DNA of 32,000 nt from Schaalia meyeri (GCF_900105015.1 NZ_FNLK01000010.1:150001-182000), one strand, 5' to 3'; shown: positions 300-20,702, counted from the stretch's first letter. Notes: generated by a model from the letters alone, not told the origin. Translations and numbers: made by a program.

Positions 300-1751
300 A
301 TGCCGTCGAGTAAAGACATTCTTGAAGCCCAGCGTTTCAACCGCAACCGCCTGATCACCGCATTCACGTCGGGCACGCCGGACGGCCACGAGGTCGACAC
401 TCCCTCCCCCGTGCGCCCGCTGATTTTCGGCACAGTCGTCGCCGTCATCATGTGCGTCGTCGGATTGGGCATCCGTTTCTTCAACCCGAATCCGGACCTG
501 ACCGCCTCGAACTACGTGTTGGTTGACGTCAAGTCCACTGGCGCCCGGTATTTCTGGGCGAACGGCGTGCTTCACCCGATCACGAACGTGACGACGGCCA
601 GGCTCCTGGCCCAGGAGTCGGGGCTTGAGGTCATCTCGGCCAGCGCCTCGGCCCTCAAGGACATCCCGCGAGGTGCACAGATCGGCCTGCCCGGCGTCCC
701 CGACGACGTGCCCGCTTCGTCGCAGCTGGGCCACACGTGGCTGTCGTGCGACCTGGAAGATACGTACCACACGTGGATCGCCGAGTCCCTGCCAACCGAC
801 AACTTCCCCCTGAAAGCGGCCACGTCGGCGCTGGTGACCCCCGATCACGGGGCCACCAAGTACTTCGTGGATGGAACCACGAACAAAAAGTACCTGGTCG
901 ACGAAACCGATAGCCGACAGAGCGAGTGGGCGCTCGCCTTCCAAAACATCATGGGCTATCCGATCGAGGCAGAACCCGCGTGGGTGGACCTGTTCCCCTC
1001 CGGCACGCCGCTGAAGTCGTGGAGCTACTCGGACATCCCGAACGCCGGACAGCCCGCGAACGAGCTGCCGGGACCGCTAAAGAATGAAAACCTGACGATC
1101 GGCACGGTCATCCAGCAGACCAGCACGAACGGAGAGGTCCTGAACTCATACCTGGTCCTCACTTCGTCGCAGCTGGCGGTGTTTAACTCGACTGCCTCGC
1201 GCCTGTACAAGGACGCGCCGCCCACCCGGCCCTTCCCGACGGACATGTTCAAGGATGTGACCCCCGTTCACGCGGACTTTATCGGCGAAGACTGGCCGCT
1301 CTACGAGCACTTTGCCGACGCCCAGTGGGCCGACCCGAAGGCGGACGCCTCAAGCCGCACCGCCCTGTGCGCTCAGATGTCCACCACCGACCACGCGGTG
1401 CCTCAGCTCGGACTGTACGTGATGCCCAACCAGCGGGCCGTTCAGGCCGCATACGACGCCGAATCCGTGTCCTCCACCTCCGGCCCGACCACCACGCGCA
1501 CGGTGACGGTCGCGGGTGGCTCCGGCGCGCTCGTCGCAATCACCTCGGGAGGCGGAGAGGCTGCGGCCTACGCGTTCGTCTCTGACCAGGGGCACATGCA
1601 CTCCCTCGGGGCCTCTCCCAGTGCGTCGATCAACGCGCTCGGCTGGGCCCAGACGGACGCCTCCGCAATCCCCGAGGCCTGGGCGCTCCTTATCCCGCCC
1701 GGTACCGACCTGACGCCCCAGGCCGCGGCGACCTCAGTGGGGTTGTCGTGA
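300..1751 (+). CDS. eccB: Type VII secretion system protein EccB
   Basis: 483 aa with a single N-terminal TM segment (RPLIFGTVVAVIMCVVGLGIRFF). EccB-family landmarks follow: GVLHPITNVTTARLL, GAQIGLPGVPDDVP and TWLSCDLED. Size and the repeat-like extracytoplasmic body fit EccB. It sits between the eccD-like end and mycP. Confidence 0.85.
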   Translation: MPSSKDILEAQRFNRNRLITAFTSGTPDGHEVDTPSPVRPLIFGTVVAVIMCVVGLGIRFFNPNPDLTASNYVLVDVKSTGARYFWANGVLHPITNVTTARLLAQESGLEVISASASALKDIPRGAQIGLPGVPDDVPASSQLGHTWLSCDLEDTYHTWIAESLPTDNFPLKAATSALVTPDHGATKYFVDGTTNKKYLVDETDSRQSEWALAFQNIMGYPIEAEPAWVDLFPSGTPLKSWSYSDIPNAGQPANELPGPLKNENLTIGTVIQQTSTNGEVLNSYLVLTSSQLAVFNSTASRLYKDAPPTRPFPTDMFKDVTPVHADFIGEDWPLYEHFADAQWADPKADASSRTALCAQMSTTDHAVPQLGLYVMPNQRAVQAAYDAESVSSTSGPTTTRTVTVAGGSGALVAITSGGGEAAAYAFVSDQGHMHSLGASPSASINALGWAQTDASAIPEAWALLIPPGTDLTPQAAATSVGLS

Positions 1752-3178
1752 GCCGCGGGCGCGCACGGTCTCGGGTTTTGAGTCGAGGCCTGGTCGGTGC
1801 CGCGCTGACGACGGGCCTCGCGCTCGCGCCCCTGTTTGCGCCCCTTTCCGCTCCTGCGGACCGGGCCGGGGAGTCCTCCGCTTTCGGGCCCGCCGTTGCT
1901 CACGCGGATCCGACGCCTGCACCGAGTGTGCGGCCCACGCCCACGACCCCGCCATCGGAGGCGCCCACGCCGACTCCGAGCTCAAGCGCAGACCAGACCT
2001 GCCCGAAGGAAACGCCGACCTACATCAAGACTCAGCCCACGATCCTCGACCAGGTTGGGGTGCGGCGCGCGTGGGATGTCACGCGGGGCGCGGGCGTTAA
2101 GGTGGCCGTCGTAGATTCTGGTGTCGCCGCGGGTAACGCGCACTTCAATGCGGGCGGCCAGACCGTCGTGTTGCCGGGCACCGACCTCAGCGGCGAAAAC
2201 ACCGACGGGCGCGTTGACGTGGGCGAGCACGGCACCGCCATCGCCGGCGCGATCGCCGCCAGGCAACTGCCATCCTCCACGGGGTCGGGGCTGGTCGGCG
2301 TGGCCCCCGAGGCTCAGATCCTGCCCGTCCGCGTCGAGACCGGCCTCGAGCAGGGAAACAACCAAAAAAAGGGGGAGGAAACCTACCTGCAGCGCCTGGG
2401 CCGTGCGATTCGGTGGGCCGCCGACCACGGCGCCCAGATCATCGTCGTTGCTCAGTCAACGAAGGAGGACGACCCGGACCTGAAGGCGGCCATTCAGGCC
2501 GTGCGTGGCCGCGCGCTCGTCGTCGCCTCGACCGGCAATACGTACCAGGACCAGGAGAATAACGTCGTCGTCTACCCGGCCGGGTACGAGGGCGTGCTGG
2601 CGGTGACCGCCACGAACGCGGACGGTTCGGCGTCCGACCAGCAGGTGCACGGCGCACACGTCGATCTGGCCGTCCCCGCGGGGGTCATTCACACGACCTG
2701 GTTCGACCAGGCCGACTGCATGGTTGGGGGGCACTCTGGGAGCACGCCCCTGCCGTCATCCTCGTACGCGACCGCCTACGCCGGTGGATTCGCCGCCCTG
2801 GTTGCCGCCCAGTTCCCGGGCGAGGGCCCCGACATGTGGAAATACCGCCTGGAGGTGACGGCCCTGCGCGGGACCGCCGACCAGCGTACCGACGAACTGG
2901 GCTGGGGTATTGTTGCGCCCTACGACGCCCTCACCTTTGGCGACATTGGAACCAGGTATGGGCCGCCGCACCCGAACGCCGCCGAGCACCCCGCTCCGCT
3001 GCGCCCTGCCGAGGCATCGGCTAACCTGACAAACCGAGACAATAACCTGACGATCCGCGCATACATTGTGTCGGCGGTGGCGGTCCTCGGTTCCGCACTG
3101 CTGGGCGGTTTAGTGATTCTGTCGCACCTGCGCGGCAGGCCAAAGAATATCGATGAGTCGGAAGAGGACCTGTCATGA
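1748..3178 (+). CDS. mycP: Mycosin (MycP), a membrane-anchored S8 subtilisin-like protease of the T7SS
   Basis: The GTG start overlaps the eccB stop (GTGA at 1748-1751). It has an N-terminal signal-like segment and a Pro/Thr-rich linker. S8 triad contexts are VAVVDSGV (Asp), EHGTAIAGAIAA (His) and SSSYATAYAGGFAALVAA (Ser). The C-terminal TM anchor IRAYIVSAVAVLGSALLGGLVILSHL followed by basic residues is the mycosin hallmark. Confidence 0.85.
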   Translation: MSRGRARSRVLSRGLVGAALTTGLALAPLFAPLSAPADRAGESSAFGPAVAHADPTPAPSVRPTPTTPPSEAPTPTPSSSADQTCPKETPTYIKTQPTILDQVGVRRAWDVTRGAGVKVAVVDSGVAAGNAHFNAGGQTVVLPGTDLSGENTDGRVDVGEHGTAIAGAIAARQLPSSTGSGLVGVAPEAQILPVRVETGLEQGNNQKKGEETYLQRLGRAIRWAADHGAQIIVVAQSTKEDDPDLKAAIQAVRGRALVVASTGNTYQDQENNVVVYPAGYEGVLAVTATNADGSASDQQVHGAHVDLAVPAGVIHTTWFDQADCMVGGHSGSTPLPSSSYATAYAGGFAALVAAQFPGEGPDMWKYRLEVTALRGTADQRTDELGWGIVAPYDALTFGDIGTRYGPPHPNAAEHPAPLRPAEASANLTNRDNNLTIRAYIVSAVAVLGSALLGGLVILSHLRGRPKNIDESEEDLS

Positions 3179-4359
3179 CCAGGAATGTGAGGCGTCGGTG
3201 TCGGCGCGCGTGCATGGTTGCACTCGGCGTTGTTGTGCTGGTCGCCGGGACCACGCTGCTGCCCGCTGCTCCCGCGCGGGCTGTCGATCCGCCGCTGACG
3301 GGCAACGAGCAGGAGTACTACACGCACTACAGGATCCGGTCGCTGCACTCGCAGGGATACACCGGTAAGGGCACAGTCATCGCGATGATCGACGGGACCG
3401 TGAACCCGAATATTCCCGAGCTGGCGGGCGCGAATATCGTGGACAAGAGCCCGTGCCCCGTGAATTCCACGGCCGAACACGCTGATCACGGAACGCTGGT
3501 TGCACAGCTCCTGGTGGCGCCCGAGTTTGGCGTGGCCCCCGGGGCGACGCTCCACACCTACGCCGTTCAGTTGAACGGCGACAGAGAGGGACAGACCTGT
3601 GATTTGCCCGGGTGGACCGGCACAGAAGGAACCGATACCTCGCTGCTGATTGAGCAAGCGATCAATGACGGCGCGGACATTATCACGATCTCAAGCAGCT
3701 ACCCCGGATACTCCGAAGACCTGCGTTGGGCGATGGCGAGGGCCATCGACCAGGGAGTCATGGTGGTTGCTTCGATGGGAAATGACTCCACGGAGGACCC
3801 TGACGACACGTTACCGTCGTGGTCGGGTATATGCGGGGTCGGTGCAGTCTTGAAAAACGGTTCCCTCACCGACTATACGAACTGGGGTAACGGGATCTTT
3901 ACCGCCGCATTGGGCGGCGTTTACTACCGCAGTGGCACGGATAAGAAAATCTACTTCGGGGAAGGTACGTCCTTTTCGACGCCTATCGTCGCCGGGTTCC
4001 TGGCTATCGCGTGGCAGAGGTTTGACGACGCCAATGCCAACCGGATCCTGCAGGCCCTCGCCGAGTCAGGCAAGAAGAACTGGAACAAGTACACGGGCTA
4101 CGGTCCGATCGACCCATGGGCCTTCCTCAATACCGATCCGTCGAATCTGCCAAATGAGAATCCGTGCGAGTCAAAAACGTATGCCTCGGACCCCAGCTGG
4201 CAAGATGTCGAAGACTATATTGATGGCACCGTTAATCCGCTGCTGATCAGGAACGACGACTCTTACGTCTATCGGGGGATTAACGAGGATGCGGCCCTTA
4301 GCGACCAGCACGACTATCCCGTGCACCTGGGCACCAGCCCCAGGTATCACGCGCAGTGA
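3175..4359 (+). CDS. Second S8 family serine protease (mycosin paralogue) with a signal peptide but no C-terminal membrane anchor
   Basis: ATGA overlap with the mycP stop at 3175-3178. The signal peptide is MVALGVVVLVAGTTLLPAAPARA. Triad contexts are VIAMIDGTV (Asp), DHGTLVAQLL (His) and GTSFSTPIVAGFLAIA (Ser). The C-terminus ...HLGTSPRYHAQ is hydrophilic with no TM segment. Confidence 0.8.
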   Translation: MTRNVRRRCRRACMVALGVVVLVAGTTLLPAAPARAVDPPLTGNEQEYYTHYRIRSLHSQGYTGKGTVIAMIDGTVNPNIPELAGANIVDKSPCPVNSTAEHADHGTLVAQLLVAPEFGVAPGATLHTYAVQLNGDREGQTCDLPGWTGTEGTDTSLLIEQAINDGADIITISSSYPGYSEDLRWAMARAIDQGVMVVASMGNDSTEDPDDTLPSWSGICGVGAVLKNGSLTDYTNWGNGIFTAALGGVYYRSGTDKKIYFGEGTSFSTPIVAGFLAIAWQRFDDANANRILQALAESGKKNWNKYTGYGPIDPWAFLNTDPSNLPNENPCESKTYASDPSWQDVEDYIDGTVNPLLIRNDDSYVYRGINEDAALSDQHDYPVHLGTSPRYHAQ

Positions 4360-4483
4360 CGCATCCGCGCAAGTCCGCAGGTTGAGACATTGATTCTGAA
4401 CCCATTGGCGGATCACGCGATTCTCGCGGGCGAGGGCAGGGTCTCTGCAGCCAAAGTGCTGTACAGGTGGCTGGGGAGTCGGT

Positions 4484-4495
4484 TAGAATAACCGT
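4484..4495 (+). promoter_or_regulatory. Putative -10 box (TAGAAT, 4484-4489) positioned for a leaderless transcript starting at the ATG at 4496
   Basis: TAGAAT matches the TANNNT actinobacterial -10 consensus. Six nt separate it from the ATG at 4496, and there is no Shine-Dalgarno between them. It lies in a 136-bp gap after the protease gene. No convincing -35 was seen. Confidence 0.3.
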
Positions 4496-4882
4496 ATGGT
4501 AGATGTGATGGGGCAGACCCCCGAAGAAATTAGACAGACTCTGCGAGAACAAGTGGCGGCAGCCGAGAAGAGGGCCGCTGCCACACAGGAGCTCGTTGAG
4601 CTTTTGAAGTCAGCCAAGGCATCCGGCTTTGATTCCCGGCGCGAGATTGAGGCTGAGGTGGATCCTGAAGGACACCTCGTGAAACTGTCAATCGACGAAG
4701 ACGCCCTCGAAGGCAGCGCTCGGGACCTCGAGGAAGGGGTTATGGAGGCCTACGCGAACGCGGGGCGTAGCATGCGTGACTACATTCAGCGGGAGACGAT
4801 CGATCGCCTCGGCGAAGACGGCGGTTCGCTGAAGGATTACCTCGACAAGATGGACTCGAGCCTCGGCTCGCTGGGGCGCTGA
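4496..4882 (+). CDS. YbaB/EbfC-like small protein (EspL-like T7SS accessory or chaperone candidate)
   Basis: 128 aa with an N-terminal coiled helix (EEIRQTLREQVAAAEKRAAATQELVELL). The YbaB-type core is EAEVDPEGHLVKLSIDEDALEGSARDLEEGVMEAYANAGRSM. It is the first gene of the substrate-type operon. The alternative ATG at 4508 cannot be excluded. Confidence 0.6.
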   Translation: MVDVMGQTPEEIRQTLREQVAAAEKRAAATQELVELLKSAKASGFDSRREIEAEVDPEGHLVKLSIDEDALEGSARDLEEGVMEAYANAGRSMRDYIQRETIDRLGEDGGSLKDYLDKMDSSLGSLGR

Positions 4883-4888
4883 TCGCAC

Positions 4889-6241
4889 ATGAGTACAGGT
4901 TCCCCCGATCTCGGTGTCGATACAGGACTCATCCGTTCGCACGCGTCCAACGTCAGTAACTGCGCATCAACCCTCGACCAGAACGTGAGCGTCGCCAGCG
5001 GTACGCAAGGGCAGGTGGGCGGTAACGCGTTCGGCATTATCTGTTCATTCTTCGTTCCTCCGGTCAGTTCACAGATCCGGAATCTGCAGGGAATGATCTC
5101 CGACTGTGCTGGGGCCGAATCTCGTTTGGTGAGCTGCCTCCTGCAGTGGGCGGAGGAAATGGACGACCTCGAAGACCGCATCCGAGAGAAGCTGTCCAAA
5201 ATCGACAAGGAACAAGGCGGCGACAACAAGCCGACTGACTGTCGGCGTCCCCGTCCCAACGGTCCCACTACTGGCAACGGAAGCGGCAACGGTGACAGAA
5301 CCGGCGGTGGTTCCACCTCCGGTGGCGGCGGTGGTGGAGGCGGCGGTTCTACCTCCGGTGGCGGAGGCGGCGGTGGTTCCACTCACGGCGGCGGAGGCGG
5401 CGACGGTTCCACTCATGGTGGTGGGGGCGGCGGTTCCACCGAGGACTCATCTAAACCCAAGATGCCTATCCCCGAAACCCCGGGACGTCACAGCTCCCAA
5501 GCCGGCGGTGCGGCTGATGGCAGCACCACCGGTAAGGATGGACACGGCGGTCATGACGGCCATGACGGTACCGGCAGGGACGGTAAAGATGGTCACGACG
5601 GCCACAAAGGCGCCGCCGAGGATACCGCCAGAAAAGGTGGCTCCGGCGGAGCGGGTGATTTCGACAGCATCCTTGGCGGACATGACAAGGTGAACGTTGA
5701 CGACGATCAGCTGCGCGCATTCCTCGAGAAGCAGCGCAATGATGAAAACACCGATCTCGCCACGTTCTACGAGCGTCAGCGGGCCGATCAGAGTGAGGCG
5801 CTCGCCCGCTACGCTGAGGCTCACCCCGGTCAGGACATCTCCGAAGTCAAGTCTTTGATCGAGTCGAATCAGCAGCAGCAACAGGACGCGATGACGGATT
5901 TCCTCTCACGGCAACGAACGGAAGAGGAATCGCAGATCCGGCAGTATCTGCAGGAGCATCCGAAGGCCACCAGTCGCGACTTCGACACGTTCATGTCGCA
6001 GCAGCGCAATGAGCAAGAGGCGAGCTACCGTTCCTTTGTCGAGGAGCAGCAGAAGGCTCAGAATGCCCGAATCGAGGAGTTTACAAAGTCTCACCCCGAT
6101 TCGAGGCCGGATGATGTGCGTTCGCTCTTTGAGCGACAGGATAGTAACGGCGACAAGGACATCGAAAAGTTCCTCCAACGTCAACGTCAGGATGAGGAGC
6201 GCACCTTGCGTCGCTTCATGTTCGAAGGAGTGAAGAAGTGA
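4889..6241 (+). CDS. T7SS-associated protein: EspC-like (type VII secretion target) N-terminal domain, poly-Gly and Asp-Gly-His low-complexity segments, and a repeated Gln/Arg/Glu-rich C-terminal module
   Basis: 450 aa. Residues 1-110 (...GGNAFGIICSFFVPP...LVSCLLQWAEEMDDLEDRI) resemble the EspC/type VII secretion target fold family. Next come GGGSTSGGGGGGGGGSTSGGGGGGGSTHGGGGGDGSTHGGGGGGST and DGHGGHDGHDGTGRDGKDGHDGHKG. Seven copies of an F-x-x-(R/Q)-Q-R-x-(D/E)-(E/Q)...(F/Y) motif then follow. The gene is coupled to the next gene by a GTGA overlap. Confidence 0.7.
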   Translation: MSTGSPDLGVDTGLIRSHASNVSNCASTLDQNVSVASGTQGQVGGNAFGIICSFFVPPVSSQIRNLQGMISDCAGAESRLVSCLLQWAEEMDDLEDRIREKLSKIDKEQGGDNKPTDCRRPRPNGPTTGNGSGNGDRTGGGSTSGGGGGGGGGSTSGGGGGGGSTHGGGGGDGSTHGGGGGGSTEDSSKPKMPIPETPGRHSSQAGGAADGSTTGKDGHGGHDGHDGTGRDGKDGHDGHKGAAEDTARKGGSGGAGDFDSILGGHDKVNVDDDQLRAFLEKQRNDENTDLATFYERQRADQSEALARYAEAHPGQDISEVKSLIESNQQQQQDAMTDFLSRQRTEEESQIRQYLQEHPKATSRDFDTFMSQQRNEQEASYRSFVEEQQKAQNARIEEFTKSHPDSRPDDVRSLFERQDSNGDKDIEKFLQRQRQDEERTLRRFMFEGVKK

Positions 6242-7686
6242 GTCTTGAGGCTCCCACACATACCCGGAGTATCGATAACACAACTCCGACCGAAGGCCTA
6301 GGGGCCATCGACGACATCTACAATGCCGTCCAGGACATGAAGTCCGGCGACGTGACGACTCTCGTCAGCGCGGCCCAAAGCCTCGTGAGCGAGGCCGGTA
6401 ATATGGTGCTCGACCCCATTGGCGGTTTAGGCGGCATGGTCGTTGAGTGGATCCTGCAGCACGTCGAACCCCTCAAGGGATGGGTAAACCAGGTGACTGG
6501 CGATTCCGCTCAGGTCTATGGAATGAGCGCGAGCTGGGACTCGATCTCGAGTTCGCTCTCCTCCGTCGCCGACGAACTCGACGACGATTCACAAAGCGCC
6601 ATGTCGAACATGCGGGGTGAGGCGGTTCGCGCCTATCTTGAGCGCCAGTCGATCGTTGTGAGTGCGATTCGTGCGATTGCTGAAGCATCGGGCGCATTCA
6701 GTGAGGCTCTGAACAAAGTCGCCGACTCGGTTGACAACATTCACGATGCCATCGTCAGCGCGATTGCGGACATCGTTGTGACCTGCTTCCAGGTGGTTGC
6801 AGAAGTCCTTATGACGTTTGGTGCCGCGACGCCGGTTGCGGCAGCACAAGTCTCCTCGAAGGTCTCGAAGTGGGCGTCGCGCATCGGGCCGATCCTGGAG
6901 GTCCTCACCCACGCCCTCGAAGCCCTTCAGGCAATTTTCGCCGTGTTGACGTCTGCTGGCAGCGATCTGACTCGCGACGCGAAGAAGATTGGCGAGCAGT
7001 GCCAGGGACCCCGCAGGGGCGGCTGCTGTGGCGGCAATGAGCCTCCCACAGGTCGAAGAAGAAGGGGTGACGGTTCTTCGAATGGCGATGACCGGGATGA
7101 CGGCAGAGTCCGTAATGGTGAGACCGGCGGTGTGACCGGAACGGGTAACGTCGGCGGCGATAACAACGGCACCATCGACAATAGTCGACACGATGATCAC
7201 CACACCGAATACAACCCAACTATCAATATCAATCGCGGTGACAAGGGATCGTCGGGCAAAGACGGCGGCCATGACTCGGGCGATGATCGTCGCAACGGCT
7301 CTTCGGATGGGCGTTCCAGGTCCCGCGACAAGTCGCACGATGGCAGCGGTGACAAGGGGAAGGGCTCATCTAAGGGCTCCGACCATGGTGACAGGCATCG
7401 CGGTGGCAAAGACCACGGCGGCAAGGACCATGGTGGGCACCGTGGCGGTAACCACGGTAGCAACCACGGCGGTAACCATGGTGGTAACCACGGCGGGCAC
7501 CATGGCGGTAACCATGGTGGTAACCACGGTGGGCACCATGGTGGTAACCACGGTGGGCACCATGGTGGTAACCATGGTGGTAACCACGGTGGGCACCATG
7601 GTGGTAACCACGGTGGGCACCACGGCGGTAACCATGGTGGCGGCCATCATGGTGGCGGCCACCATCGCCACCGCCGCCATCACTGA
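6238..7686 (+). CDS. WXG100-like / actinobacterial T7SS-signal-domain protein with a His-Gly-Asn repeat C-terminus
   Basis: 482 aa. The N-terminal ~260 aa are helical, with the signature seen at the N-termini of actinobacterial T7SS substrates and polymorphic toxins: VLDPIGGLGGMVVEWILQHVEPLKGWVNQVTGDSAQVYGMSASWDSI...SNMRGEAVRAY (the WxG position reads MRG). The middle is a Gly/Asp/Arg/Ser-rich linker. In the last 101 residues I count 33 His, arranged as (N/H)HGG tetrapeptides and ending HHRHRRHH. Confidence 0.75.
   Translation: MSLEAPTHTRSIDNTTPTEGLGAIDDIYNAVQDMKSGDVTTLVSAAQSLVSEAGNMVLDPIGGLGGMVVEWILQHVEPLKGWVNQVTGDSAQVYGMSASWDSISSSLSSVADELDDDSQSAMSNMRGEAVRAYLERQSIVVSAIRAIAEASGAFSEALNKVADSVDNIHDAIVSAIADIVVTCFQVVAEVLMTFGAATPVAAAQVSSKVSKWASRIGPILEVLTHALEALQAIFAVLTSAGSDLTRDAKKIGEQCQGPRRGGCCGGNEPPTGRRRRGDGSSNGDDRDDGRVRNGETGGVTGTGNVGGDNNGTIDNSRHDDHHTEYNPTININRGDKGSSGKDGGHDSGDDRRNGSSDGRSRSRDKSHDGSGDKGKGSSKGSDHGDRHRGGKDHGGKDHGGHRGGNHGSNHGGNHGGNHGGHHGGNHGGNHGGHHGGNHGGHHGGNHGGNHGGHHGGNHGGHHGGNHGGGHHGGGHHRHRRHH
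7441..7680 (+). repeat. In-frame tandem repeat: 12-bp unit (ggt/ggc-aac/cac-cac/cat-ggt) with a 60-bp higher-order repeat
   Basis: The 60-nt blocks 7501-7560 and 7561-7620 are identical except for one base (c at 7506 versus t at 7566). Flanking blocks 7441-7500 and 7621-7680 are degenerate copies. The region encodes the NHGG/HHGG tail of the 6238-7686 protein. Confidence 0.9.
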
Positions 7687-11015: not shown

Positions 11016-11022
11016 GCGAGCG

Positions 11023-11048: not shown

Positions 11049-11079
11049 ACGTGTGTCCGAAGTCCTATACTTGTTTCTC

Positions 11080-12125: not shown

Positions 12126-12199
12126 GCCCCTAGTCTAAGGGGAGTGGGTTGCCTCACGCCGAGCCGTTCACTCCCGGGGCAATCGGGGGCGCGTGGGAC

Positions 12200-13105: not shown

Positions 13106-13368
13106 GGGCGCTCCTTTGCGAGGGGTTACTCAATTGTGCCATGCCCCGGCGGCGGGTGGTGATATGGAACAGGCGAAAAGCGGGACGCCTCAATTGTGCG
13201 CTAGATTCCTGCAATTTGCCTCGAGGTGCGCCCTGTGGTGAACTATGCACCGTGCGTATCCTCCGCTTTCTCATCACGTCGCGCGCCGCAGGCCCGACCT
13301 GCCGCGTCGCTGCCCCCTCCTCGCGGGGGGCCATCGAGGGGAGCGCGGACTCTGCGCCCTCAATCGAC

Positions 13369-14691
13369 ATGAGCCAGGTAGCCACCGACGGCGACCTGGC
13401 GGACGGCCCCGCGCGGGTGCTCCTGCCGCTCCTGGGAATCTTCATGCTGGGTACCGTCGTGCTGCAGGGCTTTAATCTGGTGTACCTACGCGTCGCGCAA
13501 GATATCGGCGCGGGGGACGCGTCCGGCCTGATCACCGCGATACCCGGCATCGTGCTGGGCGTCGCTTGTTTTCTCTACGGCACCCTGGGCGACTTCATCC
13601 CGCTGCGCCGCATCGTCGACGTGGGCGTCGGGCTGATCATCGTTGGTTCGCTCCTCGGTTTCGCCCTGTCCACATCGCTGGTCGGCGTCATCGTTGCGCG
13701 CGCCCTCCAGACGCTGGGATACCAGGCCGCGGCATCCGTGTACATGATCCTGGCGACCTCCATCCGAAATCCCAAACGACGAGGCATCTACATCGGCCTG
13801 TTCTGTGCCGCATTCCAGGGCGGAACCGCCATCGGCATACTGTCCGGCGGTTTTCTCGCCGACATCAACTGGTCGATCCTGTTCCTGATTCCGCTGGTCG
13901 GCCTGGCCTTCCTGCCCATCATGGGCAGGCGCGTCCCCGCCCGCGCGCACGCAGGACACGTCGATGTGATTGGCCTCGCGATCTTCTCCGCCTGCGCGCT
14001 GCTGCTCACCCTGGTCGCCACCCACCCGCGCTGGTGGCTCATCGCCGGACTTATCCTGGGGGTGGCCGTGTTCTGGCAATACATCGGGCATGCTCGCGCC
14101 CCCTTCATCACACGGTCCTTCTTTACGAACGTGCCGTGGGTTCGATCAATCAGCCTCATCCTCATCGCCTACTGCACGAACTACGCGATAGCGCCCCTCA
14201 TGAACGGCATCGGTTCTGGCTACTATGGCCTGAGCCCAGCCCAGGTGTCCGTGCGCCTCCTGCCGACCTACTGCCTGGCCTTGGCCGCCGCATTGAGTTC
14301 GAGTGCCGTCATAGCGCGGATCGGGCGCGGGCGTACCGTGCGCGCAAGCATCGGCCTGATCCTATTGGGCGCGGCCCTGCTGGCGCTGTTAATCAGCGCC
14401 GGTCCGTGGGTCATCACTGCCGCCATGTGCCTCATCAACATCGGGTTTGGCGGCCTCTTCGCGCCCATCTATGACACCGTGCTTGCCACCGTTGCGCCCG
14501 GCCAGAACGGTCGAGCCGTCGCCATGAACGACCTCGCCATGCAGGGCGGCGCCGCCCTCGGCATCGGCATGCTCACTCCCTGGCTCGCCTCCGGCTATTT
14601 CCGAGCCGTCGCCGCCGCGTGCGTCCTCGCTGCCGCGACCAGCATTGTGGGCGACTGGGTTCACGAGCATCTCTACCGCAGAGGACGCTAG
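13369..14691 (+). CDS. MFS transporter
   Basis: There are about 12-14 hydrophobic segments and an MFS-like loop (IRNPKRRGIYIGLF). I place the start at ATG 13369 (MSQVATDG...). The track's 90-aa upstream extension overlaps the rbsK start and is Arg/Cys-rich, so it does not look coding. Confidence 0.8.
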   Translation: MSQVATDGDLADGPARVLLPLLGIFMLGTVVLQGFNLVYLRVAQDIGAGDASGLITAIPGIVLGVACFLYGTLGDFIPLRRIVDVGVGLIIVGSLLGFALSTSLVGVIVARALQTLGYQAAASVYMILATSIRNPKRRGIYIGLFCAAFQGGTAIGILSGGFLADINWSILFLIPLVGLAFLPIMGRRVPARAHAGHVDVIGLAIFSACALLLTLVATHPRWWLIAGLILGVAVFWQYIGHARAPFITRSFFTNVPWVRSISLILIAYCTNYAIAPLMNGIGSGYYGLSPAQVSVRLLPTYCLALAAALSSSAVIARIGRGRTVRASIGLILLGAALLALLISAGPWVITAAMCLINIGFGGLFAPIYDTVLATVAPGQNGRAVAMNDLAMQGGAALGIGMLTPWLASGYFRAVAAACVLAAATSIVGDWVHEHLYRRGR

Positions 14692-14747
14692 CGCCACGCC
14701 GTCTTGGGCAGTTTGGCCGAGTGGCGGACCCGTGATGGTATGTCGCA

Positions 14748-14836
14748 TGGTGGCGTGCAGGCGGCCCGCCCGCTAGGAGGAGGGTGCAGGCCAGGGTGGC
14801 GAGGGGTTTGGCCGTTCGTGCAGGGGGTGTGGTCAT
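14748..14836 (-). pseudogene. Truncated fourth copy of the island lipoprotein gene (signal-peptide stump only)
   Basis: Positions 14769-14838 are base-for-base identical to 15991-16060, the start of lipoprotein B including its ATGA junction. The stump reads MTTPPARTAKPLATLACTLLLAG. It then has a 1-nt indel relative to copy B, and all similarity ends by about 14748. Confidence 0.6.
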
Positions 14837-15450
14837 TTCCTTGGAGTGGTTGTCGGGTCGAACCAGTCGGGGACGCGGCCGGGCAGGTCGATGAGCCGCT
14901 TGGGGTCATCGGTGGACCCGTCACTGCGCAGGGGTTCCGTGTAGTAGGTGTAGGAGCTGTGGATATCTCGGGCGATAAGGGCGCTCACGGTGGCGCCGTA
15001 TCGTTCATTCACCCAGTAGAAGCTGACCCGCGTTTCCCCGTCGTTGGTGGTGTACTTCCTTTCCACAATTTTGAATCCGAGTGGTTCGAGGTGAGCGTTG
15101 ACGACGGAACGGAACCGGTCGACGTCGTGTTCCTCGAAGAAGTAATGGGCGGCAAACATGCTGTATAGGTACTGATTTCCGGCTGTGCTTCGGGAGATGC
15201 TGTCTTTGGCGCTGTATTTGCGGATGTTCTCGGTGGTGAGAATCTCGTTGCGTGCCGCCACAATAGCGGGCTCGATGTCGCGCTGGAAAGCCTCGATGGA
15301 CTCCATCTTGGACGCGTTGCGCAGGTTCTCAGCGTGGTGCGGGTTCATTCCTGATCCTCCAAAAAACGGTGTGCAGGCGGTGGCGCCCGCCAGGAGGAGG
15401 GTGCAGGCCAGGGCGGCGAGGAACTTGGTGGGGCGTACGTTTATTGTCAT
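14833..15450 (-). CDS. Lipoprotein, island paralogue A' (candidate immunity protein)
   Basis: 205 aa with signal peptide plus lipobox ...LACTLLLAGATAC|TPFFGG. It is about 85% identical by eye to the 16055-16663 product and shares the C-terminal block SDGSTDDPKRLIDLPGRVPDWFDP. Confidence 0.8.
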   Translation of the reverse strand: MTINVRPTKFLAALACTLLLAGATACTPFFGGSGMNPHHAENLRNASKMESIEAFQRDIEPAIVAARNEILTTENIRKYSAKDSISRSTAGNQYLYSMFAAHYFFEEHDVDRFRSVVNAHLEPLGFKIVERKYTTNDGETRVSFYWVNERYGATVSALIARDIHSSYTYYTEPLRSDGSTDDPKRLIDLPGRVPDWFDPTTTPRK

Positions 15451-15455
15451 ATGTC

Positions 15456-16058
15456 TTATTTGTGTCCGGCTGGTGGGGTTGAGGGGTCGAACCAGTCGGG
15501 GACGCGGCCGGGCAGGCCGATGAGCCGCTTGGGGTCATCGGTGGACCCATCGCTAGGAGCACGCAAGACGTAGTAGTGCACGGCGGTTTGTTCGCCTCCA
15601 ATTGTCGTGGAGGAGACGACTGCCTGGTACTGGTCATTGGTCCAGGAAAAGTCGACGAACTGTATGCCGTCTTCCGTTGTCCAGCGTTTCTCGGTCATCT
15701 TGAAGCCGAGGGGCTCGAGATGCGAGTTGTAGGTGGCTCGAATGGCGTCAGTGTCCATGTTCGCAAAGAAGTACAGACGCGAATGAAAGGAGTAGATTCT
15801 GGACCCCTCGCGCGTGTACGTGCCGATATGGTCTATGTTCTTGTATGCCATGAAGTTGTCAGCGGTCATGAGTTCGTTGCGTGCCGCGACGATGGCGGGC
15901 TCAATGTTGCGCTGGAAAGCCTCAACGGACTGAACCTTCTGATCGGGCGATTTCATAGTTCCTCCTAGGAACGGCGTGCAGGCGGTGGCGCCCGCTAGGA
16001 GGAGGGTGCAGGCCAGGGTGGCGAGGGGTTTGGCCGTTCGTGCAGGGGGTGTGGTCAT
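15456..16058 (-). CDS. Lipoprotein, island paralogue B (divergent core; candidate immunity protein)
   Basis: 200 aa with signal peptide plus lipobox MTTPPARTAKPLATLACTLLLAGATAC|TPFLGG. The segments EAFQRNIEPAIVAARNE, HLEPLGFK and the C-terminal SDGSTDDPKRLIGLPGRVPDWFDP are conserved, while the core has diverged. Its start overlaps the upstream stop (ATGA at 16055-16058). Confidence 0.8.
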   Translation of the reverse strand: MTTPPARTAKPLATLACTLLLAGATACTPFLGGTMKSPDQKVQSVEAFQRNIEPAIVAARNELMTADNFMAYKNIDHIGTYTREGSRIYSFHSRLYFFANMDTDAIRATYNSHLEPLGFKMTEKRWTTEDGIQFVDFSWTNDQYQAVVSSTTIGGEQTAVHYYVLRAPSDGSTDDPKRLIGLPGRVPDWFDPSTPPAGHK

Positions 16059-16663
16059 TTCGTTGGAGTGGTTGTCGGGTCGAACCAGTCGGGGACGCGG
16101 CCGGGCAGGTCGATGAGCCGCTTGGGGTCATCGGTGGACCCGTCGCTGCGCAGGGGCTCCGTGTCGTAGGTGTAGGAGCTGTGGAGGTCCGGGGAGAGGG
16201 AGATAAGGGCGCTCACGGTGGCGCCGTATCGTTCATTCACCCAGTAGAATTTGATCCGTGTTTTCCCGTCGTCGATGTGCTTCCTTTCCACAATTTCGAA
16301 TCCGAGTGGTTCGAGGTGAGCGTTGACGACGGAACGGAACCGGTCGACGTCGTGTTCCTCGAAGAAGTACTGGGCGGCAAACATGCTGTATAGGTACTGA
16401 TTTCCGGCTGTGCGTCGGGAGATGTGGTCTTTGTCGCCGTATTTGCGGATGTTCTCGCTGGTGAGAATCTCGTTGCGTGCCGCCACAATAGCGGGCTCGA
16501 TGTCGCGCTGGAAAGCCTCGACGGACTCCATCTTGGACGCGTTGCGCAGGTCCTCAGCGTGGTGCGGGTTCATTCCTGATCCTCCAAAAAACGGTGTGCA
16601 GGCGGTGAGTGGCAGCGATACCAAGATAACGCTGATGATTGTGGCGAACCGATGTATTTTCAT
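16055..16663 (-). CDS. Lipoprotein, island paralogue A (candidate immunity protein), translationally coupled to the hydrolase gene
   Basis: I place the start at ATG 16663-16661 (MKIHRFATIISVILVSLPLTAC|TPFFGG, a classic L-T-A-C lipobox). This forms an ATGA overlap with the hydrolase stop at 16662-16660. The track's longer ORF (to 16885) would overlap the hydrolase and is Arg/Gly-rich. Confidence 0.8.
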   Translation of the reverse strand: MKIHRFATIISVILVSLPLTACTPFFGGSGMNPHHAEDLRNASKMESVEAFQRDIEPAIVAARNEILTSENIRKYGDKDHISRRTAGNQYLYSMFAAQYFFEEHDVDRFRSVVNAHLEPLGFEIVERKHIDDGKTRIKFYWVNERYGATVSALISLSPDLHSSYTYDTEPLRSDGSTDDPKRLIDLPGRVPDWFDPTTTPTK

Positions 16664-18252
16664 TTCTTTTCCCCGGCGATGACCCGTGAAATGTCGTCCA
16701 GCGCCTTCGTCTTTTCCTTGAAGTAGGAACTGTGTTCTCCCCAGCCGGTGGGGTGCCACGGGGTGTCGCCGACATCCCCCGATAGGTGCCTGTATCCGGG
16801 CATCGTGTCGGGGTTCTTTCCGAAGGTGGCATCCGGGCCGACCCCCTGGACCATGTCGTGCCGGTAGGGCGCCGCGCTGACCCACGCGTGCCCCTTTGGG
16901 ACGTGCAGCTCGCCGACGTCCTGAACGCCGGAGCCAGGAGAACCGAACTGAACCAGGTCGTCGATGACGCCATCGCCCACTTTCGTGGCGGCGATGCCCG
17001 CCGTCGTGGAACCGTAGGAGTGAGCCGCAACGGTGACGTGGGCGTCCCCCGCGCCGTGCTCGCGCGAGGCGTCCAGCCCGTTCAGGAAACCAGCCAGGCG
17101 TTGAGCGCCAGCCTGAGCCTTGTCCGTGGACATAACGTCAACATCCTGTGGTGCGTCGTAATTGAGATATTCCACGATCGCGACGGATCCATCGGTGTAC
17201 TCTTTAACGTTCTTACGCATGGTGGAGGCCTTGTCGTCGTAGTCGCCAAGTGAATCTGCCACGTTCGTGGTCATGCCCGGGACGATGACGCCCACGTGGT
17301 CGGCCGTGTCCGGGTTATTCTGAGAGACAGCCGCGAGGACGTTGGGCCCCGACGTGTCCATGCCGAGGAGGAAGCGGGGGGTACCATCTTCCTCTTCTTT
17401 TTTGAGAGTGTGTCCAATAGCGCGGAGCGCCTGAAGTTGCCGGTGAAGCCGTTTCAACTCTCCCAGCTGTTCGACCGTTGGATCGTCCCCGAGCTCTCTC
17501 TCGTAGTCTGCGAGTTGCTGCTCCGCTTCCGCGATCTTCTGCGGGAGCGCGATACGGTTCGCTTTGTCGCGGGAGGTAAAGTCAACGCCGTCAAGGTTTC
17601 CGATCTGCTCGGGGTAATTCTCGATCATCCACTGCTTGTCCTTGTCGGACAGGGAACTCCACCAGGACGCCACCTCCTGCGCTGAAGCGCCAGCGGGAGG
17701 CAGGGAGGGGCGAGCGCTGCCGGACACGGAATAGTGCACTCCGTTGTCGAATGTTCCCCTGTCCAAAGCACTGATCATGCCTGCGAGTTTCTCTTCGAGG
17801 GCGCGAGCGTCCGTGAGGACAGTTGCGATGCGTTCGCGGATGAAAGTGAGACGCTTCAGCGGAGCCAGGGGGTCCATAGCGACATCAGCAAGCTCGCGAA
17901 GAACAGACTCGAACACAGAGACAACCCCGCTCGTGTCGATGTGAACACTCAGCGAAACAGCCAACTGTGAGATGTCCTCAATGTTCGCGCGGATCTCGTT
18001 GATCCCCTGGACTCCGGCGGAGGCGACCTCGGCCGCGCTGATCAGGTAGTTGACCTGCTCCTCAATCTCGCTGACCCGCTTGCGCAGCGCGTTCCGCGCG
18101 GCGTCCGCGGTCTGGCCCTGGCCGCTGAGCCTGCTCAGCTCGGTCGAGAGGTCCTCGCCCGTCTCCTGCAGCTTTCGCTGCTTCCTCTCGCATTCCAAGG
18201 CGTACTCCTGGAGCGGAGCAGAATCCCATTGCTTGATGTCCGCCCAATTCAC
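16660..18252 (-). CDS. Two-domain protein with no signal peptide: helical LXG/WXG100-like N-terminus plus DUF1023-type alpha/beta hydrolase C-terminus (candidate T7SS effector)
   Basis: 530 aa with a GTG start. The N-terminus has no hydrophobic signal. Residues ~1-170 look like a helical hairpin with the turn ...LSRLSGQGQTADAARNAL... The mid-region is EVASWWSSLSDKDKQWMIENYPEQIGNLDGVDFTSRDKANRIAL. The hydrolase core has HVGVIVPGM, YLNYDAP, the nucleophile elbow VAAHSYGST (A-H-S-Y-G), QFGSPG and a C-terminal His context WGEHSSYF. Confidence 0.85.
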   Translation of the reverse strand: MNWADIKQWDSAPLQEYALECERKQRKLQETGEDLSTELSRLSGQGQTADAARNALRKRVSEIEEQVNYLISAAEVASAGVQGINEIRANIEDISQLAVSLSVHIDTSGVVSVFESVLRELADVAMDPLAPLKRLTFIRERIATVLTDARALEEKLAGMISALDRGTFDNGVHYSVSGSARPSLPPAGASAQEVASWWSSLSDKDKQWMIENYPEQIGNLDGVDFTSRDKANRIALPQKIAEAEQQLADYERELGDDPTVEQLGELKRLHRQLQALRAIGHTLKKEEEDGTPRFLLGMDTSGPNVLAAVSQNNPDTADHVGVIVPGMTTNVADSLGDYDDKASTMRKNVKEYTDGSVAIVEYLNYDAPQDVDVMSTDKAQAGAQRLAGFLNGLDASREHGAGDAHVTVAAHSYGSTTAGIAATKVGDGVIDDLVQFGSPGSGVQDVGELHVPKGHAWVSAAPYRHDMVQGVGPDATFGKNPDTMPGYRHLSGDVGDTPWHPTGWGEHSSYFKEKTKALDDISRVIAGEKK

Positions 18253-18326
18253 CGGCCCATCACCAACCCCACGGCAGCTTCGCCCAAACGGGCAAACCTT
18301 CCGGGCACGTAGGAACCAACGCTCAT
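18249..18326 (-). CDS. Possible 25-codon upstream leader ORF coupled to the hydrolase start (speculative)
   Basis: My own reading of the minus strand gives GGAGG, 5 nt, then ATG (18326-18324): MSVGSYVPGRFARLGEAAVGLVMGR. Its TGA (18251-18249) overlaps the hydrolase GTG (18252-18250) as GTGA. The hydrolase GTG itself has only a weak purine-rich upstream stretch. Confidence 0.3.
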   Translation of the reverse strand: MSVGSYVPGRFARLGEAAVGLVMGR

Positions 18327-18448
18327 CGCTGCCTCCGCTTCAACGGTAAATAGTGCTGCGCGAAATGGTACCTGACAGACGGCTACTTTTCACGCGCCGA
18401 CGAACTCTGTGAGACCGGGGCGGACAATCCGGCCTGTTCAACGGTCCC

Positions 18449-19348
18449 TCAAGACAGAGTGAGAGCCAAGGCCACCAACGCACCCCACGACATCGCGTAA
18501 AACCCCGTGTTGCGCAGCACCGCTATGAGCGCGCGCCCCGACGCGCCCGTGAGCACCGGCAGGCTCACGCCCGCCGCCCAAACGGCCGCACCCACGCCCA
18601 ACGCGCACGTCGCCAACGGGTGCAGGCCCACCGCCACGCCCAGCGTGACGATCATGGGGACCGGACCCCACACGCAGGCGGCAAACACCCAGCGTGACGC
18701 GCGATCCCCCAAGCGCACGGCCGCCGTCATTTTTCCGGATTCGCGATCCGTGGGGATATCCCGAATGTTATTGGCCATCAGCAGCGCCACCGACAGGAGC
18801 CCCAGCGCCGACGCGCTCATCCACAGCCACCACGGGGCATCGCGGACCTGCGTCCACGAAGTGCCCACGCACGCCAGCAAGCCAAAGAAAACGAACACCA
18901 TCAGTTCAGACAGCCCGATACCCATGTACGCGTACGGATGCCTCCCGCCCGTGTACAGCCACGCCGCGGCCACGGCAGCAATGCCCGCACCGATCAGCCA
19001 CCACGTGCCCGACACCGCCACCAGAGTCAGGCCTGCCACGCCCGCCAGCGCAAAACAACCCAGCGCGGCCCTCAGGACCGTCTTTGGCGCCGCCAGGCCC
19101 CCACCTGTCAGCCGCGCCGGCCCCCGGCGGTTATCGTCCGTGCCGCGAATACCGTCCGAATAGTCGTTCGCGTAGTTGACCCCCACCTGCAACGCGAGAG
19201 CCACCACGAGCGCCAGGCACGCGCGCCCGGCGCCGAAACCACCCAGGTGATGGGCGGCCGCCGACCCCACGATCACGGGCGCGGCGGCGGCGGGCAGGGT
19301 GCGCAGGCGAGCGCCCTCGATCCAATCAGAAACGGAAGCCATGGCCAT
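18449..19348 (-). CDS. menA: 1,4-dihydroxy-2-naphthoate polyprenyltransferase (UbiA family)
   Basis: A polytopic membrane protein with the UbiA motif NDYSDGIRGTDD and a typical MenA N-terminus (SDWIEGARLRTLPAAAAPVIVG). I place the start at ATG 19348 or 19342. The track's 64-aa extension is Pro/Arg-rich and does not look coding. Confidence 0.85.
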   Translation of the reverse strand: MAMASVSDWIEGARLRTLPAAAAPVIVGSAAAHHLGGFGAGRACLALVVALALQVGVNYANDYSDGIRGTDDNRRGPARLTGGGLAAPKTVLRAALGCFALAGVAGLTLVAVSGTWWLIGAGIAAVAAAWLYTGGRHPYAYMGIGLSELMVFVFFGLLACVGTSWTQVRDAPWWLWMSASALGLLSVALLMANNIRDIPTDRESGKMTAAVRLGDRASRWVFAACVWGPVPMIVTLGVAVGLHPLATCALGVGAAVWAAGVSLPVLTGASGRALIAVLRNTGFYAMSWGALVALALTLS

Positions 19349-19382: not shown

Positions 19383-20702
19383 CTAGCGCACCCACTCCCT
19401 GGCGGTACCCGCCGCGCGGGTAGCCGCATCCGCAGCCGCGGCACGGTCGATCTTGTCGTAGCCCAGGTAGGGCAGGGAATCAATGGCGACAACGCGGCGA
19501 GGAGCCTGAGCGCGCCCGATGTGAGCGGCGGCGTGCTCACGGACCGAGGAGCCCAGCTTCGCCATCTCCAGCGAATCCGACGGCATTCGCTCCGGGATCA
19601 CCAAGGCGGTGACCACGTGCCCCCACTTGGCGTCCGGGGTCGCCATGATCCATGCATCCGAGATTCCCTCGTGGGAACGCACCGCGTGGCGCACCAGGCC
19701 GGGGGCGATCGACAATCCGCCCGACACGATCACGTCGTCGGCGCGCCCGCGCACCTCGACCGTGCCCGACGCGCGAATAATGCCCAGGTCGCCCGTGAGC
19801 AGCCAACGGTGGCCACCCTCTTCAAAGAACGGGCTGTCCGCATCCAGATAGCGGGTCATCAGCGTGGGACCGTTGATCGCCAGGCGCGTGCGGCCGTCCC
19901 AATCGACCGCGCGCACGGACGTGCCGGGCAGGGGCAGGCCGTCGTACACGCAGCCGCCTGCCGTCTCCGTCATGCCGTAGGTGGTGCGCACCCTCAGCCC
20001 CGCCTCGCGGGCGCGCGCGAGCAGCTGCTGGTTGGTGGCCGCGCCGCCCACGAGGATCGCCGAGAGCGAGCGCAGCGCCTCCACGACCTGTTCCGCGTCC
20101 AGGCACTGGGAGAGCTGCGTGGGCACCAGGGACAGGTAGCCGGGCATGTCGTCCTGCGTGGCACCCCGAACGGCGGGCAGGAGCGCCTCGGGGGAAAAGC
20201 CCTCAGAGGTGTCGACGATCTGCGGATTCGTCTCTGCCACCGCGGCGCGCAGGAGCACCATCGCGCCCGCGATATGGTGTGTCGGCAGGGCGAGGATCCA
20301 GCGCCCCGGGCCGTTTAACGCCAGCTCGGTGGCCTTCGCCGAGGCGATGAGCGCCTCGGTAGAGAGGCCGACCAGGCGCGGCGCGCCCGCGCTGGAACCC
20401 GAAGTGGGGACCACCAGGTCGATTCCGTCAAAAAATGCGGGATCCTGATCGATCTCACGGGCCAGGCCGGGGTATCTTTCCTCTGGGAACGCTTCCTGCG
20501 GGGTCGCCGCGGAACCCCGCAGAGTGGCGGGAGAAACGGATTCAGGCTCGCGCAGAACCACGACCGTGTGGGGCGCGGGATGATTCGGGTCGGCTGCCCG
20601 TTCCTCGTACAGCTCAACGAGCTTGTGGATGGACGCGTTGGCCAATGCGACGGCACCGGCGGAGGTGCCCCCCGGCACGACAAGGATTCGTGGCGCAGCC
20701 AT
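19383..20702 (-). CDS. menE: o-Succinylbenzoate-CoA ligase (AMP-binding enzyme)
   Basis: Adenylate-forming motifs are present (VVPTSGSSGAPRLVGLS; TTYGMTETAGG; GDLG...GRADDVIVSGG). It lies upstream of menA on the same strand. The start is set at ATG 20702, with a GGGAGG Shine-Dalgarno 7 nt upstream. Confidence 0.8.
   Translation of the reverse strand: MAAPRILVVPGGTSAGAVALANASIHKLVELYEERAADPNHPAPHTVVVLREPESVSPATLRGSAATPQEAFPEERYPGLAREIDQDPAFFDGIDLVVPTSGSSAGAPRLVGLSTEALIASAKATELALNGPGRWILALPTHHIAGAMVLLRAAVAETNPQIVDTSEGFSPEALLPAVRGATQDDMPGYLSLVPTQLSQCLDAEQVVEALRSLSAILVGGAATNQQLLARAREAGLRVRTTYGMTETAGGCVYDGLPLPGTSVRAVDWDGRTRLAINGPTLMTRYLDADSPFFEEGGHRWLLTGDLGIIRASGTVEVRGRADDVIVSGGLSIAPGLVRHAVRSHEGISDAWIMATPDAKWGHVVTALVIPERMPSDSLEMAKLGSSVREHAAAHIGRAQAPRRVVAIDSLPYLGYDKIDRAAAADAATRAAGTAREWVR

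Follow-up and report, generated by a model that had tools for sequence, protein, structure and literature searches.

What might a hydrolase without an export signal be doing when its gene is translationally coupled to a row of lipoprotein genes? The question is raised by an island within a 32,000-nucleotide (nt) stretch of Schaalia meyeri DNA (GCF_900105015.1, NZ_FNLK01000010.1:150001-182000), hereafter the window. The island encodes a 530-amino acid (aa) protein and three lipoproteins (lip1, lip2 and lip3), which an earlier note, made from the sequence alone, had taken for a T7SS (type VII secretion system) effector and its array of immunity proteins. At a probability of roughly 55%, we favor the reading that this is an Esx (type VIIa) effector-immunity module, in which a WXG100-like export front end is joined to an envelope esterase or lipase and accompanied by inhibitors of the DUF4853 family. 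The coordinates of all features are collected in Table 1.

The hydrolase, its lipoprotein array and their linkage

A Pfam search with the 530-aa protein reveals a match to Abhydrolase_8/DUF1023 (PF06259) at residues 304-471 (E 9e-30; 104.1 bits, cut-off 20.5), where the earlier note had expected one near residues 300-510. Each motif which it had quoted for the alpha/beta-hydrolase layout is present, namely VIVPGM (322-327), NYDAP (364-368), AHSYG (410-414), FGSPG (436-440) and GEHSSYF (505-511); the third of these is a nucleophile elbow of the G/A-H-S-Y-G type, with the Ser412 codon at 17017-17019. Alignment of the protein with 90 diverse relatives reveals that the triad is kept (Ser412 in 74/74, Asp466 in 75/77 and His507 in 77/80) and that residues W197, W198, G222, R228 and N232 of the preceding helical domain are near-invariant. 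These results support the prediction that the protein is a DUF1023/Abhydrolase_8 serine hydrolase with an intact triad. The reported lack of a Sec or Tat signal is also confirmed, since no export signal was found in the hydrolase: the N-terminus is hydrophilic, there is no hydrophobic segment, and the maximum 19-aa Kyte-Doolittle value is 1.22. A PDB sequence search yielded nothing useful, and NCBIfam gave no informative match. The literature searched contains no characterized DUF1023 member, only predicted alpha/beta hydrolases, and the one source cited there is the work of Zheng et al. (2005), who predicted the fold.

The hydrolase was modeled using AlphaFold2 with 20 homologues, resulting in a mean predicted local distance difference test (pLDDT) score of 71.7. 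The helical domain at residues 191-289 is well predicted (pLDDT about 77-95), while the alpha/beta domain displays strand-helix alternation at a lower model quality than this pre-domain. Foldseek comparison of the full model revealed weak matches to generic esterase, lipase and PETase-like folds, and no match for the helical half.

All three lipoproteins match Pfam family DUF4853 (PF16145; E 1e-34 to 3e-37, 120-128 bits, cut-off 34.8). Their N-termini possess a charged n-region, a hydrophobic core (Kyte-Doolittle 1.9-2.2) and a Cys, the lipobox LTAC being canonical and ATAC near-canonical. ATGA overlaps connect the hydrolase gene to lip1 (16660-16663), lip1 to lip2 (16055-16058) and lip3 to a fourth-copy remnant (14833-14836), while 5 nt separate lip2 from lip3; analysis of open reading frames (ORFs), overlaps and repeats therefore agrees with the earlier description of a lipoprotein gene overlapping the hydrolase stop, two more paralogues and a truncated fourth. 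At the protein level lip1 and lip3 are 82-88% identical, and lip2 is 46-50% identical to either, its closest relatives being of the type that follows C1-clade hydrolases (see below) in other strains. The DNA repeats D1, D2 and D6 have a period of 1222-1228 nt (D2, 14767-14975 versus 15989-16197, 96%), and the data show that the array arose when a unit of two genes (1.22 kb) was duplicated in tandem, the copies sharing 90-96% DNA identity. The last copy is cut off beside a convergent gene of the major facilitator superfamily (MFS), and the sequence of the remnant ORF diverges beyond MTTPPARTAKPLATLACTLLLAG.

The model of lip2 (pLDDT 72) is a domain in which helix and antiparallel sheet are combined. 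Structurally it is closest to PDB 4mjg (E 5.5e-4, TM score 0.45-0.49), a structural genomics entry for protein ACTODO_00621 of Actinomyces odontolyticus, which carries the same Pfam family name as lip2 at only 10% identity; EagT6, SciW, DcrB, PsbP and MTC28-type proteins are weaker matches. A PDB sequence search with lip2 found nothing useful, and the DUF4853 profile did not match 4mjg. There is no mention of DUF4853 in the literature searched.

Searches for DUF4853 were word- or pattern-limited and covered Schaalia, Pauljensenia and Actinomyces-like sequences together with a few distant ones; the Pfam description also names Corynebacterium members, which fall outside this sample. With DUF4853 as bait, the hydrolase gene is found directly upstream in 17/17 genome loci, with one to three DUF4853 copies each, all from Schaalia, Pauljensenia and Actinomyces, that is, oral and gut Actinomycetaceae. 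Two of the genomes bear a pair of complete modules arranged in tandem. Metagenome loci recovered with the hydrolase as bait carry full-length orthologues (about 58% identity) at the menA-MFS position occupied in the window, with two or three DUF4853 genes behind them. A DUF4853-like gene also lies downstream of four out of five distant hydrolases (about 25-37% identity, or about 28-37% in the N-terminal region), its homology being indicated by BLAST, a custom hidden Markov model and weak Pfam matches; the same is true of P0332, and a DUF4853-like protein from a profile search sits in a triplet of a small partner gene, hydrolase and DUF4853. The linkage thus extends down to about 25-30% identity. 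This neighborhood survey, which the earlier note had proposed, reveals that the co-occurrence of hydrolase and DUF4853 is tight, wide and clade-matched.

The matching concerns the clades of the hydrolase C-domain. The first DUF4853 protein downstream is of the B-type (cluster 2) in every module of clade C1 and of the A-type in clade C2, to which the window and module 1 of locus L016 belong; it falls in cluster 1 for clade C3 and in cluster 12 for clade C5. The extra array copies fall in other clusters, several of which are never hydrolase-adjacent in the sample. In locus L001 a C1 hydrolase is followed by B-, B- and A-type copies, and the C2 module of L016 contains a copy with 88% identity to L001_D3; no C2 hydrolase is present in the approximately 21.6 kb of the L001 locus covered. 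The window is reciprocal, its C2 hydrolase being followed by A, B, A and the B remnant. By analogy to what is described for TilA, the lipoprotein that protects against the staphylococcal lipase TslA, these arrays look like cognate plus orphan immunity genes. Flux in copy number is evident from the variable arrays, pseudogenes, tandem modules and the recent duplication in the window.

Compared to related loci, the hydrolase is 43-55% identical in the N-domain, 48-59% in the pre-domain and 60-75% in the C-domain, and the lipoproteins are 43-66% identical; the neighboring MenA, PfkB, phosphatase and TrkH exhibit 82-91% identity, the island evolving far faster. Within clade C1, the C-domains are 81-88% identical, whereas identity of the N-domains falls to 36-39% (L004 versus L001: 85% and 36%). 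Alleles P0002 and P0003 display block-wise replacement at residues about 93-180 and 203-300; recombination shuffles the helical half of the hydrolase rather than the enzyme. The variable arrays with their non-cognate copies agree with the polymorphic immunity array which had been proposed, but the polymorphism of the hydrolase sits in its N-terminal half and not in the hydrolase domain.

The N-terminal domain, partner genes and type VII secretion

In the AlphaFold2 model the N-terminus forms a hairpin of about 100 residues (pLDDT 70-87), consisting of helices 12-41 and 47-100 with LSGQG (42-46) at the turn, and is followed by a third helix (129-164). Among the aligned relatives Trp occupies position 44 in 47/90 and Gly position 46 in 90/90, giving a family consensus of WxG, where the window protein reads G44-Q-G46. 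Pfam searches reveal no WXG100, LXG or PPE match for the window hydrolase (none to LXG at E up to 1; coiled-coil noise only), whereas matches to WXG100 (seven), WXG100_2 (three), PPE (two) and EspA_EspE (one) are found among the 90 relatives. When the N-domain profile was compared with structures, clustered, in-register matches to EsxA, EsxB, ESAT-6 and CFP-10 were obtained at E 0.03-0.5, each of them non-significant. When 1.84 billion representatives were searched using residues 1-300, 871 relatives were recovered, mostly of 520-620 aa, with the alignment starting at residue 1-2.

Membership of the LXG toxin family was considered and rejected: there is no LXG profile match, and the apparatus genes of the window (EccB, mycosin) are T7SSa-type, whereas LXG belongs to the T7SSb of Bacillota. 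The WXG/LXG-type N-terminus put forward in the earlier note, which had anticipated clan similarity within residues 1-170, consequently survives in part, as a WXG100-type helical domain at the level of the family; the window protein itself goes unmatched, and its GQG turn has neither Trp nor Leu in register.

Distant relatives of the hydrolase (L023, L025, L026, L028, L030, L033 and L035) are preceded by a gene for a helical partner of 105-133 aa, which is translationally coupled to the hydrolase gene. The partner proteins are homologous to each other, show weak WXG100/DUF6317 similarity and contain Y/FxxxD/E-like motifs (e.g. EYTANE, DFIAAE and DFTTAD); one partner-bearing module has a WXG100 gene and a mycosin of the S8 type as neighbors. 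The layout is the bipartite one familiar from PE/PPE and Esx pairs and from complexes of Tap or Lap proteins with toxins. The distant hydrolase P0129 has paralogous partner-like genes on both sides (L026:3368-3946 and 6298-6948), with extended Gly/Pro-rich tails.

In the window clade the position upstream of the hydrolase is occupied by a 25-aa ORF, which the earlier note does not mention. An equivalent ORF (MSNDSYTPG...VMKP, then stop) with the same GTGA junction occurs in 14/15 related loci compared, all 14 being devoid of a helical partner; the exception is L023, in which a partner gene takes the place of the ORF. The leader upstream of the ORF is conserved too, including a TAGGAT-like element. 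The 25-aa ORF appears to be translationally coupled to the hydrolase, and may encode a leader peptide that serves in coupling or regulation.

Residues 185-290 together with Abhydrolase_8 recur four to six times within giant proteins of 3,000-7,600 aa (P0125-P0137). Those examined have a WXG100_2 domain at their start, so joining a WXG100_2 front end to the hydrolase module; P0128, the gene of which lies within an EccC-EccD-mycosin locus, additionally carries a papain-fold toxin domain (Gln_amidase) and a GDPD domain. The gene of one giant immediately follows those for EccC, EccD, a mycosin and a YbaB-like protein, and another comes after a YbaB-like gene, as does the WXG100_2 gene of the window. 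The giant proteins look like multi-enzyme T7SS substrates. Because of the WxG turns and WXG100 matches of the relatives, the Esx-like partners and the giant proteins of T7SS loci, the hydrolase module is a recurrent T7SS cargo at the family level. The tie to T7SS loci drawn in the earlier note holds at this same level, through the giant proteins and the mycosin/WXG100 neighborhoods, and the window hydrolase presumably follows an Esx export route.

Proposed mechanism and rival explanations

We infer the export route, the substrate, the toxicity and the inhibition by the lipoproteins as follows. Having no signal peptide, the hydrolase would be synthesized as a cytoplasmic protein, and its N-terminal three-helix WXG100-like domain would direct it to the Esx apparatus, some genes of which lie 9 kb away. 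The exported cargo would comprise the helical pre-domain and the Ser412-Asp466-His507 alpha/beta-hydrolase, most likely an esterase or lipase acting on an extracytoplasmic envelope component of a neighboring cell, which may be an epibiont attached to the surface or a rival strain of the Actinomycetaceae. The DUF4853 lipoproteins, co-translated with the hydrolase and located on the outer face of the producer membrane, would bind and neutralize the hydrolase domain, with lip1 as the putative cognate inhibitor and the other copies guarding against variant hydrolases of other strains. A more specific scenario, which we regard as quite unlikely, is that of a partner-less Esx effector at the surface of oral Actinomycetaceae, directed for example against Saccharibacteria: the hydrolase would hit the epibiont envelope, DUF4853 arrays would shield the host membrane, and targeting or regulation, otherwise the task of the helical partner, would fall to the polymorphic N-domain plus the 25-aa leader ORF.

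A number of observations weigh against the effector-immunity reading, and they are best considered together with the rival explanations to which most of them lend weight. It is conceivable, albeit unlikely, that the hydrolase is not a T7SS substrate, its N-terminus being a coiled-coil or oligomerization region, the enzyme remaining cytoplasmic or leaving by another route, and the proximity to ESX genes being coincidental. Such a view would account for the coiled-coil noise in place of a WXG100/LXG match, the Trp missing from the turn, and the absence of a partner gene, for which tblastn with four partner sequences from relatives found no homologue, either upstream of the hydrolase or elsewhere in the 32-kb window; the island and the ESX genes are, moreover, separated by Trk, PfkB and MFS genes. 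In the one Esx secretome available for this bacterial group, that of S. odontolytica, just four proteins differed between wild type and an eccC deletion in an Esx-dependent manner. All four are products of the Esx cluster, the window hydrolase not being among them, and the further candidate Esx substrates of that species all adjoin small hairpin genes (PMC13622651). No hydrolase is mentioned in the main text of that preprint (PMC13622651), which constitutes mild evidence against its secretion under the conditions used, where the gene may not have been expressed. Set against this are the relatives, the N-termini of which match WXG100, WXG100_2 and PPE and carry WxG, and which have coupled Esx-like partners in or beside T7SS loci. 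A purely cytoplasmic role is unlikely because a signal-less enzyme is here coupled to exported lipoproteins. Confidence in an Esx effector-immunity module is nevertheless moderate because the partner gene is missing, the Trp is lost and the hydrolase is unreported in the secretome.

Export of the hydrolase need not imply that it is a toxin. It might remodel the cell's own envelope or harvest fatty acids or esters from material of the host or of neighbors, with the DUF4853 proteins as working partners, i.e. anchor, regulator or carrier of substrate or lipid; we hold this to be a doubtful explanation, yet one that deserves serious attention. The menA-MFS chromosomal site is conserved across the Schaalia/Pauljensenia group, and a syntenic, apparently vertically inherited locus would also fit a housekeeping role. 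The hydrolase core is strongly conserved, and a conserved enzyme domain with a mosaic N-terminal half is the reverse of what is seen in classical polymorphic toxins. In host-associated bacteria, rapid evolution under immune pressure is common among surface and secreted proteins. The modeled DUF4853 fold resembles DcrB, Eag, PsbP and MTC28-type proteins, none of which is an enzyme inhibitor; it gives no direct function and leaves room for a role other than immunity. The hydrolase domain is modeled at modest quality only, the matching of clades is partly confounded by shared ancestry, and no DUF4853 gene is present near the distant hydrolase P0129 in L026 or beside an Amycolatopsis plasmid copy. 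What the working-partner explanation finds hard to accommodate are the non-cognate extra copies and reciprocal orphan types, and the fusion of the same hydrolase module with a Gln_amidase toxin domain in a giant protein of a T7SS locus. The DUF4853-like proteins of two distant clades (L030 and L033) lack a signal peptide altogether, their ORFs starting right after the hydrolase stop. The earlier description of the lipoproteins as extracytoplasmic accordingly fits lip1-3 but not these distant counterparts, which are cytoplasmic versions of the putative inhibitor; they are at odds with inhibition at the cell surface and also with surface lipid handling, and they argue that the conserved job of DUF4853 is to bind the hydrolase, wherever that occurs. 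That the module is a decaying relic without current function is highly improbable. The truncated fourth lipoprotein copy and frameshifted hydrolases in L007 and L018 might be taken as decay, but the window has unbroken ORFs for the hydrolase and its three lipoproteins, the triad is preserved together with the residues invariant in the family, and a protein identical to the window hydrolase (P0001) was recovered elsewhere.

The effector-immunity reading has precedents. TslA is a phospholipase secreted by the T7SS of S. aureus and neutralized by multi-copy DUF576 lipoproteins, and the analogy which the earlier note had drawn to it agrees with the published description (PMC10730906). The TslA-TilA (TlaA1/TlaA2) system likewise combines a T7SS lipolytic serine hydrolase, an adjacent membrane lipoprotein and variable, recombining arrays (PMC10730906), export and inhibition being presumptive in the window module. 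The differences are that TilA (DUF576) is unrelated to DUF4853, that the lipase of TslA is N-terminal, i.e. the domain order is reversed, that TslA is a substrate of a Bacillota T7SSb whereas the window module is of the Actinomycetota T7SSa type, and that TslA requires two adjacent helical partners whereas the window hydrolase has none adjacent. In mycobacteria, EatA, EatI and TapA1/A2 comprise a T7SS toxin, its lipoprotein inhibitor and partner set (PMC13444075). For Mycobacteriales and other Actinomycetota, this 2026 paper predicts T7SS payloads of the alpha/beta-hydrolase type, which are among the commonest, and downstream genes for lipoprotein immunities where the target is extracellular; its main text was found to name neither DUF4853 nor Abhydrolase_8 (PMC13444075). 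The window module shares with EatA-EatI an N-terminal helical bundle, a downstream lipoprotein and, putatively, an extracytoplasmic target and inhibition (PMC13444075), but EatA is an arabinanase (GH183), and the fold of EatI is another one. The eat-like loci are defined by upstream tap-like genes, which are present in the distant hydrolase relatives and absent in the window clade.

Closest by taxonomy is the Esx system of S. odontolytica which, according to a September 2026 preprint, limits Saccharibacteria epibionts via AesA and AesB (PMC13622651). It stems from the same bacterial group and type of Esx locus, with EspC-like/Gly-rich and WXG100_2 genes in the equivalent place; unlike the window hydrolase, the functional region of AesB is an intrinsically disordered tail, and no immunity gene is described. 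As far as its main text shows, the preprint does not cover the window module. More remote parallels are the ESX-5 substrate LipY, in which a PE secretion domain is joined to a lipase, and the Tle-Tli pairs of type VI secretion, where extracytoplasmic immunity proteins counter envelope-acting lipases. The window hydrolase has no PE domain and no detected homology to LipY or the Tle families.

For staphylococci and mycobacteria the concept of a T7SS hydrolase with lipoprotein immunity is an established one, which makes the advance here incremental rather than conceptual; it lies in the protein families which are proposed for these roles. The unusual traits of the locus are the lack of an adjacent partner, the coupled 25-aa leader ORF, the polymorphic N-terminal half and the signal-less relatives of the lipoproteins. 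If the Esx effector-immunity reading is correct, DUF1023/Abhydrolase_8 would be an Esx-delivered envelope hydrolase and DUF4853 (4mjg) its lipoprotein inhibitor, and an enzymatic effector-immunity pair would join the Esx repertoire of oral Actinomycetaceae, for which AesA and AesB, both non-enzymatic, are the only effectors with experimental demonstration, in defense against Saccharibacteria. This would be of relevance to the ecology of the oral microbiome.

Genomic surroundings

The earlier note had placed the island about 9 kb from an ESX-like locus, and the spacing is correct: the part of the Esx/T7SSa locus contained in the window occupies positions 300..7686 on the plus strand. Its layout resembles that of the S. 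odontolytica cluster encoding AesA and AesB (PMC13622651). The GYNVP motif of AesB is absent from all six frames of the window, and the proteins of the window Esx cluster are therefore not equated with AesA and AesB.

Table 1. Features of the Schaalia meyeri window and of related loci (the latter with locus prefix)
Feature	Coordinates	Strand	Remarks
EccB	300-1751	plus	
Two S8 mycosin-like proteases	1748-3178, 3175-4359	plus	tandem, overlapping, directly after eccB
YbaB/EbfC-like gene	4496-4882	plus	
Protein with EspC-like N-terminus	4889-6241	plus	450 aa, long poly-Gly region, charged QRxxE-type repeats
WXG100_2 protein	6238-7686	plus	482 aa, final about 130 residues with (H/N)GG repeats and His/Arg tail
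TrkA, TrkH, phosphatase, PfkB, MFS transporter	about 7850-14700		
Island	14767-18326		
Fourth-copy remnant (B-type)	14767..14836	minus	about 70 nt, signal-peptide codons only; ATGA junction kept
lip3, DUF4853 lipoprotein, A-type	14833..15450	minus	205 aa, ATAC; recent tandem-duplication product
lip2, DUF4853 lipoprotein, B-type	15456..16058	minus	200 aa, ATAC; candidate non-cognate (orphan) immunity protein
lip1, DUF4853 lipoprotein, A-type	16055..16663	minus	202 aa, lipobox LTAC; ATGA-coupled to hydrolase; candidate cognate immunity protein
Signal-less hydrolase gene, candidate Esx/T7SS effector	16660..18252	minus	530 aa, GTG start, 1026 homologues
Alpha/beta-hydrolase domain, aa 293-530 (Pfam Abhydrolase_8)	16663..17376	minus	Ser412/Asp466/His507 triad
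Helical pre-domain, aa 185-292	17377..17700	minus	WW...IGNLDG...R.xAN motif; Abhydrolase_8 companion in all cases
N-terminal helical domain, aa 1-165	17758..18252	minus	modeled hairpin and third helix; WXG100-like at family level
Conserved 25-aa ORF (MSVGSYVPGRFARLGEAAVGLVMGR)	18249..18326	minus	strong GGAGG Shine-Dalgarno ahead; TGA stop overlaps hydrolase GTG (GTGA)
menA, menE, YkuD, amylase, menB, menC, menD, HtrA	18449 onward		
Giant-protein loci	L032:6001-18657; L031:6001-15500		multi-module Abhydrolase_8 proteins
Signal-less DUF4853-like genes	L030:7633-8112; L033:6998-7471		modules with 105-aa partner
Tandem hydrolase-DUF4853 modules	L016:4592-11145; L018:5137-11201		two per locus, complete or partly decayed

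An origin from a mobile element was rejected: plasmid matches are distant "alpha/beta hydrolase" genes of Streptomyces, Amycolatopsis and Mycobacterium, and the window locus is chromosomal and syntenic. Rfam, promoter and terminator scans of positions 14400-18600 revealed nothing relevant. The MFS transporter (13099-14691, plus strand) and a MenE-like ligase (19383-21077, minus strand), which lie on either side of the island and menA, are only 52-59% identical to their counterparts in related loci; the fast-evolving zone may reach past the island, or the coordinates of these two genes may include poorly aligned ends. The G+C content of the island is 57-61%, compared to 65-70% on both flanks.

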